Assembly: GCA_043819075.1 (NCBI GenBank)
Contig: JBDRFE010000060.1
Location: forward strand, 780-64,779
DNA: 64,000 bases
Direction of reading: 5' to 3'
DNA from: an archaeon
Lineage (GTDB): Archaea; Iainarchaeota; Iainarchaeia; Iainarchaeales; 1-14-0-10-31-34
This document shows positions 3,916 to 59,090 of the stretch, in pieces. Numbering within the stretch: the first letter of the stretch is position 1; each line of letters opens with the position of its first letter. Below the pieces are notes generated by a model. That model had not been told where the DNA came from, did no database searches, and saw only the letters and a program-made list of their open reading frames with translations. Made by a program: the position numbers and the translations under genes.

Positions 3916-5412
3916 ATGGCTTTAAAGAAATCAGAGGTTTTAATGGATTTGGCTTTAAGGAGAAGCATTTTTTTTCCTTCAGCCGAAATTTACGGCGACT
4001 CATTCAGCGGTTTCTGGGATTACGGGTTTTATGGCACAGCAATTAAAAACAAAATCATTGAAGCCTGGAGAAAAGACTTGGTTGAAAAAGAAGGTTTTAT
4101 TGAATTAGACGGCGCACAAATTCTGCCTGAAAAAGTTTTTCTTGCTTCAGGGCACTTAAACAATTTCAACGACCCTTTAATCCAATGCGAGAAATGCCAT
4201 TCACTTCACCGCGCTGACTCTTTGCTTGGAAAAGAATTTGAGTTAACTGAGGGAACACCAACTGAAAGATTTGATGAATTAATTTCACAACACAAAATCA
4301 AGTGCCCTTCCTGTAAAGGAAATTTAGGCAAAACAAAAAAATTTAATTTAATGATGGGCTTGGATATTGGTGCAACAGGCAAACTAAAAGGCTTTTTAAG
4401 GCCTGAAACCTGCCAGAACATTTTTTTGAATTTTTCTAGGATTTATAAGACTATGCGAAAAAACCTTGCATTCGGCATTGCACAGACAGGAAAATGCTTT
4501 AGAAATGAAATTGCTCCAAGAAACTCTATTTTAAGAATCAGAGAAATAAGCCAGATGGAAATAGAAGTATTTTTTAATCCGGACAAAATTAATGAAGTAG
4601 AAAACTTTTCTTTGATAGAGGATTTTCCTGTAAGAGTTTTGCTTGACAAAAAAAAGTCAGTTGAAGAAATCAAGGCAAAAGATTTGGTTGTAAAAAAAAT
4701 TGTTTCCGGAAAGCTTGCAGCCTATTATCTTTCCAGAGTCCAGCAGTTTTTTGAGGGATTAGGCATTCCAAGAGAAAAATTAAGGTTTAGGGAAGTAAGC
4801 CAAGAAGAAAGAGCGTTTTATGCTTTAGAGGGCTGGGATTTTGAGGTTGAAACTTCTCTTGGATGGATTGAGTTAGTGGCAAACAATTATCGTTCAGACT
4901 ATGACTTAAAAAATCATTCACTTACTTCTGGAGCAAACCTGAAAGTAAAAGAAGAAGACAAAGAATTTTTTCCTCATGTCTGGGAAATTTCTGCCGGGGT
5001 TGACCGAACATTGTTTGTTTTGCTTGAATTAGCTTTAAGAGAAGAAACAAAGAAAGGCGAAAACAGATTGTTTTTGTCTCTTTCTCCTAAGATTGCGCCT
5101 TTTACTGCCGGAGTGTTTCCTTTGGTTAACAAAGACGGATTAGATGTAAAAGCTAAACAGATTTTTGATGACTTGTTAGAGCATAAGATTGCTGTTTTTT
5201 TTGATTCAAAGGGTTCTATTGGCAAAAGGTATGCCAGGATTGACGAGATTGGTGTTTCTTTTGCTTTGACAATTGACTTTGATTCTTTGAAAGATGATTC
5301 TGTTACTATCAGGGAAAGGGATTCAACTGAACAGAAAAGAATTGCAGTTAAATCTCTTCCTGAAACCCTTTGGAAGCTTTCCACAGGCAAAACGACGTTC
5401 ACGCAGATTTAA
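3916..5412 (+). CDS. glyS: glycyl-tRNA synthetase (archaeal/eukaryal type)
   Basis: Class II GlyRS N-terminus (YGDSFSGFWDYGFYG) and overall length. Confidence 0.85.
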   Translation: MALKKSEVLMDLALRRSIFFPSAEIYGDSFSGFWDYGFYGTAIKNKIIEAWRKDLVEKEGFIELDGAQILPEKVFLASGHLNNFNDPLIQCEKCHSLHRADSLLGKEFELTEGTPTERFDELISQHKIKCPSCKGNLGKTKKFNLMMGLDIGATGKLKGFLRPETCQNIFLNFSRIYKTMRKNLAFGIAQTGKCFRNEIAPRNSILRIREISQMEIEVFFNPDKINEVENFSLIEDFPVRVLLDKKKSVEEIKAKDLVVKKIVSGKLAAYYLSRVQQFFEGLGIPREKLRFREVSQEERAFYALEGWDFEVETSLGWIELVANNYRSDYDLKNHSLTSGANLKVKEEDKEFFPHVWEISAGVDRTLFVLLELALREETKKGENRLFLSLSPKIAPFTAGVFPLVNKDGLDVKAKQIFDDLLEHKIAVFFDSKGSIGKRYARIDEIGVSFALTIDFDSLKDDSVTIRERDSTEQKRIAVKSLPETLWKLSTGKTTFTQI

Positions 5413-5493
5413 TTATTTCCTTGCACTATTTTTTTACATCACTATTGAGCAAAGCGAAATAGTGCACTGGTGTAAACTGACAGCGGCAGTTTT

Positions 5494-5569
5494 GCCGCCG
5501 TAGCATAGCTTGGTTTTATGCAGCGGTTTCGTAAACCGCAGATCGTGGGTTCAAATCCCATCGGCGGCT
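5494..5569 (+). tRNA. tRNA-Thr (anticodon CGT)
   Basis: Cloverleaf folds by hand: acceptor GCCGCCG/CGGCGGC, anticodon stem GCGGT/ACCGC, loop TTCGTAA, T-arm GTGGG-TTCAAAT-CCCAT. Confidence 0.8.
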
Positions 5570-5634
5570 ATCAGTCTTTTTCACTGGCAATGCGGTTTCC
5601 ACCAAAATAAAAACCATTAAAACGAAATATTTCA

Positions 5635-6657
5635 ATGCGTTATAATCGAATCGGGTTTTTTTCTGCAGAAGACAGGACCTTGTTTTTTGAAATTGGGAAA
5701 CAAGTGCTCTACTGTGATTCTTGGAAACAATTCTGTGCGAAAGTAGGTATTCAAAAATCGATGGCTGAATACTATCGTAATGGTAAACTTTTATTGCCGG
5801 AATGGCTATTTCTTAATTTGTCAGAAAAATTTTCTTCCGAAAAAAGAGCTTTTTTTAAATCAAAAATTTTTTTGAAACCGCCCAATTGGGGTGAGAGTAT
5901 TGGCGGTAGAAAAACATCAGCCTCCCATCCAGAATTTATTGTAGCTGCGCGTGCGTCTGCAAGGGAAAAGTTTTCGCGTCTTCCAAGGAACTGTTTTGAT
6001 TTAAATCAAGAACTGTCTTGTGAGTTGTGTGAATTTGTTGGCGCTTTTATGGGGGATGGCCACACAGGTTTATATGGCAGCCATACAATAGTCGGGTTTA
6101 CTGGGCATGCCAAACTTGATGATGATTATTATTATAGAACCATTATTCCAGCAGTAAAGAAATTGTTCCACATTGAAACTTGTTATGTCTGGAAAAAAGA
6201 AAACATAATGCGTGTTACTTTTCATTCAAAAAGACTCGTTGAATTGTTGATTAAACGATTTGGTTTTCCTACTGGAGTCAAATTTGATAAGATTCTGATT
6301 CCGGAAGAAATTTTGCATTCTTCAAACGAACACATTGCGGCAGTATTGCGCGGACTTTTTGATACTGATGGATGCGTTTTCTTTGATAAGAGAAAAATCT
6401 ACCGTAATCCCTATATGAGATTTAATCTGACAATGTATAATCCCCAAATTCTGGATCAGGTAGTTCAGGCACTTGCCAAAATAGGTATTCATGCTTCCAG
6501 AGCTAATTCCAAAAGAAGCATTCAAATCACCAACAGCCAGAATATTGAAGGTTTTCTCAGGTCTGTTGGGTTTTCAAACACAAGGCACATAAGCAAAGTT
6601 CTGCAGGCATATCCTGACTTTAACTCTTTTAACCCCGGAACAAGATTGACTTCGTAA
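5635..6657 (+). CDS. free-standing LAGLIDADG homing endonuclease with N-terminal HTH
   Basis: Two LAGLIDADG motifs (FVGAFMGDGHT and LRGLFDTDGCV); not embedded in an intein or rRNA. Confidence 0.75.
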   Translation: MRYNRIGFFSAEDRTLFFEIGKQVLYCDSWKQFCAKVGIQKSMAEYYRNGKLLLPEWLFLNLSEKFSSEKRAFFKSKIFLKPPNWGESIGGRKTSASHPEFIVAARASAREKFSRLPRNCFDLNQELSCELCEFVGAFMGDGHTGLYGSHTIVGFTGHAKLDDDYYYRTIIPAVKKLFHIETCYVWKKENIMRVTFHSKRLVELLIKRFGFPTGVKFDKILIPEEILHSSNEHIAAVLRGLFDTDGCVFFDKRKIYRNPYMRFNLTMYNPQILDQVVQALAKIGIHASRANSKRSIQITNSQNIEGFLRSVGFSNTRHISKVLQAYPDFNSFNPGTRLTS

Positions 6658-6693
6658 AGCGAAGGTCGGGGGTGCGATTCCCTCCAAGGGCTT
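6648..6693 (+). other. tRNA 3'-half-like fragment (anticodon-loop 3' part through acceptor 3' strand)
   Basis: TTCGTAAA-GCGAA-GGTC-GGGGG-TGCGATT-CCCTC-CAAGGGC-T parallels tRNA-Thr positions 32-73; oligo-T follows; no matching 5' half (GCCCTTG) nearby. Confidence 0.5.
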
Positions 6694-6759
6694 TTCTTAA
6701 AAAAGTAAAGCTCCGTTGAAACCGAAAACATGAAATACGGGTTTAAACTTATTTAAACC

Positions 6760-7872
6760 ATGAAACAATTAATTCTGATTGTATTAATTGGATTAATTTT
6801 ACTGGTTATTGGTTGCACTGCTGAAAATCAAGATACGAATTCAAATGATATTAAATTTCAGCCAAAAACAGATGTTAACTATGCAGAACTTTCAATGAAT
6901 CCTAAAGACGTTAATTTTGCTTATGTGTTAAGAGGGGAGCATTGGAAACTAACTTCGCAGTTTTATGGTGGGCTCAACGATTACTTACAAAGCCAGCCAA
7001 GAAGCATTACACTACTTAAAGGAGAAGAAATTACTGACGTCAATTTTGTTGAAAAGTTTATTGATGAACTCAATCAAAAAATTTATTTAAAATCATTAGT
7101 TGATTATATAAAACAAATTGAAGTTTCTGATGCTGATAAAGTTAGAATAGTTGTAAGTTTGGTTCAAAACATTCCTTACGATTATAATGCTTATTATAGA
7201 ATTGAAAATGATGAAAACAACATTGAAAAATACCCTTACCAAGTTTTATATTTGAATACAGGTGTTTGTGGCGAAAAATCAAGGCTGTTAATTTATTTTT
7301 TAAGAGAGTTAGGTTATGGAACCGCATATATTAATTTTGAAAAAGAAAATCATGCTGTTACAGGAATTAAATGTCCTATAAAATATAGTTACAAAGACTC
7401 TGGTTATTGTTTTATTGAAAGCACTGCCCCTACAATAATCACTTATTCTGAAGGAGAATACCTTAATGCAGGAAAACTTTCAAGCACGCCAAAAATAATT
7501 GTCAGTAGTGAAGGAATGTCTTTTGATTCTGTTTCAGAAGAATTTAATGATGCTTTACGCTATAAAGAGTTAATAAAAGACCATTTAGGAAACAATTATT
7601 CTGATTGGCTTTCTTTAATGTCAAAATATGGTTTAGAGAAGTCTTCCTGTTTTGACGGTTCTGTTTTATGTAATGGTGAGTGCTGGACTGCTTGTTTGCC
7701 GCAGCAAATATTCAATTGTGATGCTAAAACAGGTGCAACCTGCAAATGGGATGCAAAAAATTGTCCAACAGGAATGACAGCATGTAATAATGAATGTTAC
7801 CCAAACTGTACCGAAGGAACATTTGAATGCGCTCAGCAAGGCGTAGTTTGTCACATTGTCAAATACAGATAA
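6760..7872 (+). CDS. secreted lipoprotein with transglutaminase-like cysteine-protease core and Cys-rich C-terminus
   Basis: Signal peptide plus IGC lipobox; GVCGEKSRLLIYFLRELG (Cys) and NHAVTG (His); about 14 C-terminal Cys. Confidence 0.45.
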   Translation: MKQLILIVLIGLILLVIGCTAENQDTNSNDIKFQPKTDVNYAELSMNPKDVNFAYVLRGEHWKLTSQFYGGLNDYLQSQPRSITLLKGEEITDVNFVEKFIDELNQKIYLKSLVDYIKQIEVSDADKVRIVVSLVQNIPYDYNAYYRIENDENNIEKYPYQVLYLNTGVCGEKSRLLIYFLRELGYGTAYINFEKENHAVTGIKCPIKYSYKDSGYCFIESTAPTIITYSEGEYLNAGKLSSTPKIIVSSEGMSFDSVSEEFNDALRYKELIKDHLGNNYSDWLSLMSKYGLEKSSCFDGSVLCNGECWTACLPQQIFNCDAKTGATCKWDAKNCPTGMTACNNECYPNCTEGTFECAQQGVVCHIVKYR

Positions 7873-8025
7873 CTAATAGAATAATAAGGTCTCATTCTGT
7901 TAGCACTAAATTTTCTTTTTCATTACTTTTGCTTTAACTTTGTTTTAGCCAGCACTAAAGCGAAAACATGTTTTTTTCCAGTTCATTTAAATCTTTTTTG
8001 CTCTTTTTCTTGTTTTCTGATTTAA

Positions 8026-8226
8026 ATGAACTGCGCTGAATGTGGTAACACTGCAACAAAACTGAATTCAAAAGGAATTCCTGTTTGTTCAAGGCACTTA
8101 AAAACTTCGGTTAAGTTTCCTGAATGCCCTAACTGCAAGCTGGAAATGGTTTTAAGGAAAGGAAAATTCGGTGCATTCTGGGGCTGCAAAGCTTTTCCGA
8201 TGTGCGATGGAATAAGAAAAATCTAA
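8026..8226 (+). CDS. small zinc-ribbon protein (topoisomerase-type C4 finger)
   Basis: CxxC...CxxC and CPNC...GCKAFPMC pattern. Confidence 0.45.
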   Translation: MNCAECGNTATKLNSKGIPVCSRHLKTSVKFPECPNCKLEMVLRKGKFGAFWGCKAFPMCDGIRKI

Positions 8227-50187: not shown

Positions 50188-50258
50188 TATAGAATTAGTC
50201 TTCTGAAATTTAAATGCTTTTAGTTTAAAAACATTATTTAACCATTTTATTATGTTTT

Positions 50259-50459
50259 GGGACCGTGGTGTAGCCTGGTCTAGCATTGCGGCTTTGGGCC
50301 ACAACTGTTTCGTCAGTTGAGTGCGATGCACGACTTTCGCGGTTTAGCCCGCGAGAGACTATGCACTACTTTCAGTAGAGCTAGCTTGCTTCGCTTTATT
50401 CTGATAAAATAATTGATGCAAATAAGCCGTTGACCCCGGTTCAAATCCGGGCGGTCTCA
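50259..50459 (+). tRNA. tRNA-Pro (anticodon TGG) with 126-nt intron after position 37 (50299..50424)
   Basis: Exon 1 GGGACCG..GCGGC-TTTGGG; exon 2 A-GCCGT-TGAC-CCCGG-TTCAAAT-CCGGG-CGGTCTC-A; acceptor and anticodon stems pair across the intron. Confidence 0.7.
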
Positions 50460-50668
50460 TAACATTTTTCTTAAATTAATCTCGCATTTGCTTTCTTCTT
50501 CTCTGCCTTCTTTCGTCACTTGTTTTTGTATTCTGTTTTTCTTGTTTCAAGAACTTTTTTTGTTTTAATGCTTTGTTTGCAGTCCTTTCCTTTGATTCTT
50601 TTGAACGCGAAAACATTCCTGAATTCATGTTATACTATTGTTTTATGATATTAATTAGCTTTTGTTTT

Positions 50669-58962: not shown

Positions 58963-59090
58963 TGGGGACACTGGGAGTCGAACCCAGATTTCATGGTTGC
59001 TGCCTTTTTTAGAAAATTTTGTTTTTGATAAAACTTTTTTCTAAAAAGTTTTGTCTGGAGCCAAGCGGGATGCCATTACCCCATGTCCCC
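58963..59090 (-). tRNA. tRNA-Trp (anticodon CCA) with ~55-nt AT-rich intron in the anticodon loop
   Basis: Exon 1 GGGGACA..CTTGG-CTCCAG; exon 2 A-CCATG-AAAT-CTGGG-TTCGACT-CCCAG-TGTCCCC-A; one U.U mismatch in the anticodon stem. Confidence 0.6.

Follow-up and report, generated by a model that had tools for sequence, protein, structure and literature searches.

How does an endonuclease gene come to lie between an intact tRNA gene and the 3' portion of another, with its stop codon inside the latter? The question is raised by a locus in a 64,000-nt stretch of archaeal DNA (Iainarchaeales; contig JBDRFE010000060.1, positions 780 to 64,779), here called the window, in which an intact tRNA-Thr(CGU) gene (5494-5569, + strand), an open reading frame (ORF) encoding a LAGLIDADG endonuclease of 340 amino acids (5635-6657, +) and a tRNA-like 3' piece (6650-6692, +) follow one another. 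We consider it probable (roughly 0.7) that a free-standing LAGLIDADG homing endonuclease gene overwrote part of the resident tRNA-Thr(CGU) gene and its upstream flank, beside an intact and divergent tRNA gene, and that its spread was driven by cleavage. Neighbouring genes place the organism in the Iainarchaeum (Diapherotrites) group of DPANN archaea. Comparisons were made with 164 fetched loci encoding relatives of the window endonuclease (165 with the window; loci are labelled L001 and so on). Close relatives for comparison of the locus itself were found via glycyl-tRNA synthetase (GlyRS), the gene upstream of the window tRNA-Thr(CGU), with GlyRS identities to the window of 83% for both L165 and L166/L167, 77% for L168, 84% for L171 and 85% for L170.

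The similarity of the 3' piece to a tRNA gene, which a sequence-only reading of this DNA had pointed out, is clearly above chance. Using a tRNA-Thr profile built from 42 tRNA-Thr genes of related loci (about 0.87 Mb searched), nhmmer matched 6650-6692 to profile positions 31-73 (31.2 bits, E=1.7e-7), and cmscan in truncated mode matched positions 32-71 of the tRNA model (18.5 bits, E=0.049 for a 69-nt search). In an Rfam search at E<=10 over 5300-6900 the piece went unreported, and it appeared only when the search began at the piece itself (truncated matching). It corresponds to about positions 31/32 to 73 of a tRNA-Thr(CGU), and the anticodon loop, the 3' strand of the anticodon stem, the variable loop, the T arm (GGGGG/TGCGATT/CCCTC), the acceptor strand CAAGGGC (6685-6691) and a discriminator T, then TTTT, can be read directly from it; the oligo-T (6692-6695, +) is the end of the native tRNA gene, now at the 3' end of the endonuclease transcription unit. 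The final codons of the ORF lie inside the piece, and its stop codon TAA (6655-6657) falls inside TTCGTAAA (6651-6658), the octamer of the anticodon loop. The same octamer is found in the intact tRNA, as had been noticed, although its first copy is at 5528-5535 and not at 5527-5534. The overlap of the stop codon with a tRNA-Thr-like 3' half, and the mismatch of its acceptor strand CAAGGGC to the CGGCGGC of the intact tRNA, were both borne out.

The origin of the piece was indicated by relatives without the endonuclease gene. Its sequence is 91% identical to the last 45 nt of the native tRNA-Thr(CGU) of L165 (6583-6654; GCCCTTG...TTCGTAAAGTGGAGGTTGGGGGTGCGATTCCCTCCAAGGGCT), as against 69% to the corresponding part of the window's own intact tRNA, which argues that 6650-6692 is the remnant of the resident tRNA-Thr(CGU) gene, its first ~27-31 nt having been replaced. 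The GGGCTTT junction at the 3' end of this relic is also present in relatives. The unusual T loop TGCGATT (6673-6679), with G at position 55, might be taken for decay; this was rejected, as it is the native T loop of relatives that lack the endonuclease gene, L165 among them. As a separate observation, G in place of the near-universal U at position 55 (T loop TGCGATT or TGCAA..) was found in native tRNA-Thr genes of several DPANN lineages (the genes include those of L165, L013, L022, L024, L087 and L120, and the window relic), which suggests an unusual T-loop or modification state in those organisms.

A relic of this kind might still serve as the 3' half of a split tRNA, or as the 3' exon of a giant intron, to be joined to a 5' half encoded elsewhere. 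Split tRNAs are known from DPANN archaea (Nanoarchaeum equitans), the organism has intron-bearing tRNAs, and the T arm and acceptor strand of the relic are intact and identical between the window and L001. The matching 5' half (GCCCTTG...), for which the sequence-only reading had proposed a search, was nevertheless not found on the + strand of the 64-kb window, all eight matches of GCCCTTG being on the minus strand, and no other 5'-half match was found within the window. The 5' strand of the anticodon stem beside the relic no longer pairs with the 3' strand, and the relic is orthologous to part of an ordinary contiguous gene, that of L165. Its fold, hairpin CTTCG-TAAAG-CGAAG included, is no more stable than those of shuffled sequences (z=0.23), and the remnant of the resident tRNA is progressively shorter in other lineages, beginning at about position 44 in L169 and at about position 54 in L170 (last 21 nt). 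With no selected structure and with shortening elsewhere, the relic is therefore regarded as non-functional, and a working half-gene at this position is highly improbable.

The other tRNA of the locus is intact. The tRNA-Thr gene with anticodon CGT ending at 5569 was confirmed by ARAGORN and by Rfam (tRNA, 62.6 bits); it has the acceptor GCCGCCG/CGGCGGC and the canonical T loop TTCAAAT, and is the predicted working copy of tRNA-Thr(CGU). It is 97% identical to the tRNA of L001, the closest relative of the window that has the endonuclease gene, and only 59-72% identical to every congeneric tRNA-Thr(CGU) allele, with the divergence spread along its whole length. Directly upstream lies a native-type flank (copy 1, 5413-5493, +), homologous to the flank of the single tRNA-Thr(CGU) in relatives without the endonuclease gene and similar to that of L171. 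The flank closes with a hairpin directly 5' of the tRNA (AAACTG 5474-5479/CAGTTT 5487-5492, +), the strands of which covary among relatives (CAACTTTT/AAAAGTTG in L165, CACCTTTT/AAAAGGTG in L167 and CAACTG/CAGTTG in L001). The whole-length divergence and the possession of its own native-type flank argue that the intact tRNA is a separate gene unit and not a reconstituted chimera. Relative to a locus with a single unit, the insert thus comprises the intact tRNA, a spacer and the ORF (5494 to ~6649, ~1.16 kb), and takes the place of the first ~27-31 nt of the resident tRNA gene.

These properties bear on the explanation favoured in the sequence-only reading, site-specific integration into a tRNA gene, weighed here as insertion of a small element into the 3' half of tRNA-Thr by an integrase that was later lost, with duplication of the attachment (att) core. 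In the footprint of such an event the intact tRNA is a chimera of native 5' and element-derived 3' sequence, and both 3' copies share a near-identical att core. In the window the 3' copies are 69% identical, the relic matches the native gene and not the intact one, and the 5' half of the intact tRNA is not native. The order of intact tRNA, cargo and partial 3' copy does resemble that left by archaeal integrating elements, which insert in this way and leave tRNA fragments (PMC3293823). The insert is, however, merely ~1.16 kb of tRNA, spacer and endonuclease ORF, and no recombinase gene was found within about 5494-6649, so that the cargo is solely a homing endonuclease, with no integrase, as had been stated from the sequence; the same layout recurs in the close homologues examined, with no recombinase among the called neighbouring genes. 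Integrase-type integration is accordingly highly improbable.

A further suggestion had been a decayed case of intron homing. The ORF would originally have been housed in a bulge-helix-bulge intron of tRNA-Thr(CGU), with subsequent loss or rebuilding of the 5' exon. Canonical introns do occur in relatives of this tRNA (L166/L167 and L171), and in the distant family members L064, L117 and L035 the ORF is held between 5' and 3' parts of one tRNA. The relic contains the anticodon, however, and begins at about positions 27-32, upstream of the canonical intron site at 37/38. The canonical intron of ~35 nt in the tRNA-Thr(CGU) of L166/L167 is also found within the L001 relic, downstream of the ORF, which places the ORF outside that intron; decay was rejected as the source of the extra 45 nt of that relic, these being the native intron of L166/L167. 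The ORF moreover has its own start and a promoter-like box, and no 5' exon was found in the window. Descent from an intron is thus very unlikely. The introns themselves gave an observation of another kind: when the tRNA-Thr(CGU) introns of L166/L167, L171 and L001 were compared with the intron of another window tRNA (58963-59090, - strand), the latter was found to contain AAAACTTTTTAGAAAAAAGTTTTATCAAAAA, nearly the same as AAACTTTTTGGAAAAGTTTTATCAAAAA in the tRNA-Thr(CGU) intron of the relatives, which suggests one short hairpin intron family in different tRNA genes and hints at intron mobility.

The product of the ORF has the features of a homing endonuclease, and the description of a 340-aa, double-motif LAGLIDADG protein at 5635-6657 was upheld. 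It is matched by Pfam LAGLIDADG_3 (E=3.4e-10) and has two LAGLIDADG motifs, GAFMGDG (D141) and LFDTDG (D245), the aspartates of which are invariant in an alignment of 13 homologues. An AlphaFold2 (AF2) model (predicted local distance difference test score, pLDDT, 86) and its Foldseek matches (the TliVMA intein endonuclease domain, I-AniI, I-Tsp061I and I-DmoI; E 1e-9 to 1e-7) show the pseudo-dimeric alpha-beta-beta-alpha-beta-beta-alpha fold, and a sequence profile search also picked up PI-PfuI. No intein splicing domains were found in the ORF by Pfam scan. Judged by the invariant catalytic aspartate pair and the confidently modelled LAGLIDADG fold, the enzyme looks competent. Residues 1-118 form a separate helical domain (AF2 pLDDT 88), for which the sequence-only reading had proposed a helix-turn-helix (HTH). 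Structural matches to lambda-repressor/XRE HTH domains were weak and consistent (E 0.2-2), and the remote homologues P0017 and P0018 carry HTH_3/HTH_19, whereas no significant sequence match was found in PDB, Pfam or NCBIfam; an HTH-like domain is therefore plausible, with weak support. In three Iainarchaeum loci (L012, L016 and L009) a shortened protein was observed in which ~115 residues at the N terminus (MENR..FD.NQPL) are missing and the start lies 4-7 nt beyond a tRNA-Thr(CGU) of native type; this form may represent a deletion of the DNA-binding domain that disables targeting.

The gene is probably transcribed as a unit of its own. Between the intact tRNA and the ORF lies a spacer of 65 nt (5570-5634, +), in which a TATA-like box, AAAATAAAAA (5604-5613, +), precedes the ATG by 21 nt; the spacer is conserved in L001 and probably holds the promoter of the endonuclease gene. 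At the other end, the oligo-T of the relic is a probable terminator of the endonuclease transcription unit.

Comparison of the close relatives showed that the locus exists in several forms, including relatives without the insert, which the sequence-only reading had proposed for comparison. In L165, L166/L167 and L168, GlyRS is followed by one tRNA-Thr(CGU) and no endonuclease gene; the same Zn-ribbon gene directly follows the single tRNA in L165 and L166/L167, and the flank ending in a hairpin is common to L165 and L166/L167 and not shared by L168. L171 likewise has one tRNA-Thr(CGU), of the GCCGGAG type, and no endonuclease gene. In L170, a flank, an intact GCCGGAG-type tRNA, a second homologous copy of the flank and a native tRNA cut to its last 21 nt follow one another, again with no endonuclease gene. 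In L169, a different LAGLIDADG+HTH ORF, encoded on the opposite strand, comes after GlyRS; next are an intact tRNA, the flank for a second time and what is left of the native tRNA, beginning near position 44. The L169 ORF (529 aa, 6498-8084, - strand), which combines LAGLIDADG_3 with a Cro/C1 HTH at its C terminus, shares 27% identity with the window protein over 112 aa, and its presence led to rejection of the idea that L169 is a locus that has lost its endonuclease gene. The endonuclease ORF of the window type is present in the window and L001, and absent at this locus from L165, L166/L167, L168, L170 and L171, so that its presence is polymorphic at a homologous site among close relatives. 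The gene also adjoins a tRNA variant that differs from the allele of endonuclease-free relatives, as in 'intronless homing' of the Seg/Mob type. The L001 protein is 84% identical to that of the window, and its ORF (5935-6900) is disrupted, with a shorter called product and two tblastn segments; two frameshifts were observed, both in homopolymer runs, the first an extra T close to the start and the second around codon 310; these could be real decay or an assembly error.

Altogether, five forms of the locus were distinguished: a single unit of native type, a single unit of the second type, and three tandem forms, in which the native copy is truncated (L170), accompanied by a different LAGLIDADG ORF (L169) or overwritten by the ORF (window and L001). 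On sequence evidence the GlyRS/tRNA-Thr(CGU) locus is a hot spot for LAGLIDADG genes, and the window, L001, L170 and L169 may be read as a life-cycle series at one locus. The tandem forms also invite another explanation, in which two tRNA-Thr(CGU) units with their own flanks existed beforehand, one of them redundant and decayed, and the endonuclease gene landed or persisted there, the intact tRNA having no role in mobility. In its favour, both L170 and L169 show a first flank copy with an intact tRNA and then a second flank copy with a truncated native tRNA, without the window ORF between them, and the intact tRNA of the window is preceded by a native-type flank like that of L171. Set against this, no relative with two full tandem tRNA genes at the locus was found, single-copy loci being of either type; a full second gene at this place, which the sequence-only reading had named as an arrangement that relatives might have, is thus missing from them, although L170 and L169 do have the second flank copy and a truncated second tRNA. 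The intact tRNA of the window and L001 is moreover an outlier, at 59-72% identity to the congeneric alleles, and elsewhere in the family the intact tRNA lies inside the broken gene without a flank of its own (in L017 with 4 nt between 5' fragment and tRNA, and similarly in L098 and L074), an arrangement unlike an old tandem pair. Homing from an occupied donor would in either case co-convert the neighbouring tRNA. A pre-existing duplicate that played no part in mobility is on balance unlikely; whether the intact unit arrived with the endonuclease gene or was already present as a tandem duplicate, both readings stand, and under either of them the two elements would be copied together in repair from an occupied donor.

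Across the family as a whole, a tRNA or tRNA fragment was found within 400 nt in 121 of the 165 loci, a count which leaves out the type-II tRNAs found by ARAGORN beside members from bacteria of the candidate phyla radiation (CPR). The family is found mostly in small-genome DPANN archaea, with some members in CPR bacteria. Where the adjacent tRNA lies is linked to its isotype, a pattern read off the loci directly, with no protein tree behind it: among the nearest homologues of the window protein, most have tRNA-Thr(CGU) 12-90 nt upstream of the ORF, and tRNA-Thr(GGU), Arg(CCU), Ser(CGA) or Ala(GGC) begins 0-50 nt downstream of the ORF in other loci. The window layout of intact tRNA, ORF and 3' relic was also found in L002, L006, L012, L013, L015, L017, L022, L024, L027, L091 and L093, and in several loci sharing it the stop codon of the ORF is the TAA of the anticodon loop of the relic. 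In the Thr(GGU) group, a 5' fragment of 15-16 nt (GCCTCTGTAGCTCAG) and a TATA-like box precede the ORF, which runs into the intact tRNA. In L017, L027, L098 and L074 (Arg-CCU), an ORF and an intact tRNA together lie between 5' and 3' fragments with perfectly pairing acceptor strands and are therefore nested inside a broken tRNA gene; these four loci favour a cassette that carries its own tRNA. An ARAGORN call of a 'tRNA-Asn with 1128-nt intron' in L027 was not credible, as the D arm is broken and the 'intron' contains a whole tRNA-Thr. Junctions cluster across the family, 5' fragments ending at positions 16-24 and 3' fragments beginning at positions 24-38. In the distant members L064 (3008-3862), L117 and L035/L105, the ORF separates the 5' part of a tRNA from the 3' part of the same tRNA, the acceptor strands of the two parts match, and in L064 the ORF is bracketed by a 10-bp helix (GCGCAGAAGC/GCTTCTGCGC); these are candidates for true long introns. 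The ARAGORN call of a 'tRNA-Leu with 761-nt intron' in L064 is not credible as it stands, the anticodon arm being unclear.

With overwriting by a homing endonuclease gene as the favoured explanation, the following course of events is proposed. The enzyme would cut tRNA-Thr(CGU) genes of native type within the stretch from the D loop to the anticodon stem, a region proposed because the junctions cluster there. Repair from an occupied chromosome would then copy the endonuclease gene and the neighbouring divergent tRNA by co-conversion. This tRNA, being divergent through the target region, is presumed to resist cutting and would keep up decoding while the resident gene is broken; the relic of the latter supplies the stop codon of the ORF and, probably, its oligo-T terminator. 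The pair would thereby behave as a 'spare tRNA + endonuclease' cassette.

Several observations weigh against this explanation. A second copy of the native flank stands before the truncated tRNA in L170 and L169, and a tandem duplication of flank and tRNA therefore existed at the locus independently of the window endonuclease gene, so that the intact tRNA of the window may be a pre-existing paralogue rather than cargo. The first part of the window spacer may be a remnant of a second flank copy; the only hint of such an origin, and a weak one, is a stretch of 13 nt shared with the spacer of L169 (p about 0.01), which was copied from the native flank. No 5' fragment of the broken gene was found in the window with the nhmmer tRNA-Thr profile. 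Finally, the gene stays beside tRNA-Thr(CGU) down to 42% protein identity, and such persistent adjacency could mean long vertical residence or domestication and not active homing.

Generalisation to the family is more tentative than the reading of the single locus, and we regard it as possible rather than probable that the family as a whole is specialised on tRNA genes, spreading as cassettes of an endonuclease gene and a whole replacement tRNA that insert into a tRNA gene (of the same isoacceptor in the window), the host decoding on while the resident gene breaks into 5' and 3' pieces. If this is true, fragmentation of tRNA genes, replacement of tRNA alleles and possibly the origin of long-intron or split tRNA genes would be driven, time and again, by a protein in small-genome archaea. 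Homing endonucleases usually spare their host by residing in introns or inteins. The window endonuclease gene is inserted straight into a tRNA gene, which is thereby destroyed, the cost seemingly being covered by the divergent second tRNA copy. The same design across many DPANN lineages and several isotypes offers a testable mechanism for the replacement, fragmentation and perhaps splitting of tRNA genes, with a bearing on the long debate over the origin of split and intron-bearing archaeal tRNAs, and also makes available a number of natural meganucleases whose predicted targets are highly conserved. When DPANN genomes are annotated, tRNA halves beside LAGLIDADG ORFs are better read as relics than as split tRNA genes.

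Other features around the locus were also observed. A second insertion, of ~1.29 kb (6696-7987), lies precisely between the end of the relic (GGGCTTT) and the native downstream flank (TTTAAATC... at 7988), and encodes a single ORF of 370 aa (6760-7872) with an N-terminal hydrophobic segment, a weak match to the transglutaminase core and a Cys-rich tail. It is missing from both L001 and L165, and is therefore unconnected with the insertion of the endonuclease gene. Upstream of the tRNA, the flanks of L001 (about 5695-5760) and L170 (about 5040-5100) contain an insert of ~52 nt with two hairpins (GAGGGATTTATCCCTC and AAACCTTTGCTTGCAAAGGTTT), bordered by a 7-bp direct repeat, AGCGAAG; the window has a single AGCGAA at about 5450-5458 and is free of the insert, which has the look of a miniature transposable element that duplicated its target site. 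A window tRNA-Pro(UGG) with a 126-nt intron (50258-50460, +) was called by ARAGORN in intron mode and was unreported by Rfam at the gathering threshold.

In a literature search, no description of such an arrangement was found for archaea, and the nearest known systems each share part of it. Integrating elements of the pNOB8/SSV type and the Caldiarchaeum case, in which a tRNA-Thr(GGU) fragment accompanies a 1.8-kb recombinase insert at a locus polymorphic in the population (PMC3293823), resemble the window in having, at a tRNA-Thr locus, a short mobile insert with an intact tRNA on one side and a tRNA fragment on the other; they differ in having a recombinase and an att-type repeat, whereas the window has no recombinase and its repeat is not an att core. 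Archaeal LAGLIDADG intron and intein enzymes (I-DmoI, I-Tsp061I, PI-PfuI and the TliVMA intein) share the core fold and catalytic motifs and are the best structural and sequence matches, but they are protected by an intron or intein that is spliced out, while the window gene stands alone and the tRNA gene that it interrupts stays broken. The tRNA introns of CPR bacteria contain few endonuclease genes, and these are of other families (PMC13011429). The closest working analogue is SegB of phages T4/T6, a free-standing GIY-YIG homing endonuclease in a tRNA gene cluster, which recognises tRNA-gene sequence, spreads its own gene and neighbouring tRNA genes by co-conversion, can produce tandem tRNA+segB amplifications, and has homologues that are statistically associated with tRNA genes (PMC2330249; PMC13096335). 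Both segB and the window gene, a predicted endonuclease gene, are free-standing and sit among tRNA genes. In contrast to SegB, the window enzyme is a LAGLIDADG protein with an HTH-like N-terminal domain and not a GIY-YIG enzyme, its family is found in cellular DPANN genomes (and some CPR bacteria) and not in phages, certain isotypes recur in the adjacent tRNA and each is typically placed in its own way with respect to the ORF, and the window ORF has taken over part of a tRNA gene, in the anticodon loop of which it terminates. Taken by itself, the locus is an ordinary scar of a selfish element; the pairing with a spare tRNA across the family, together with the tRNA fragments, is a new variation on a known theme.

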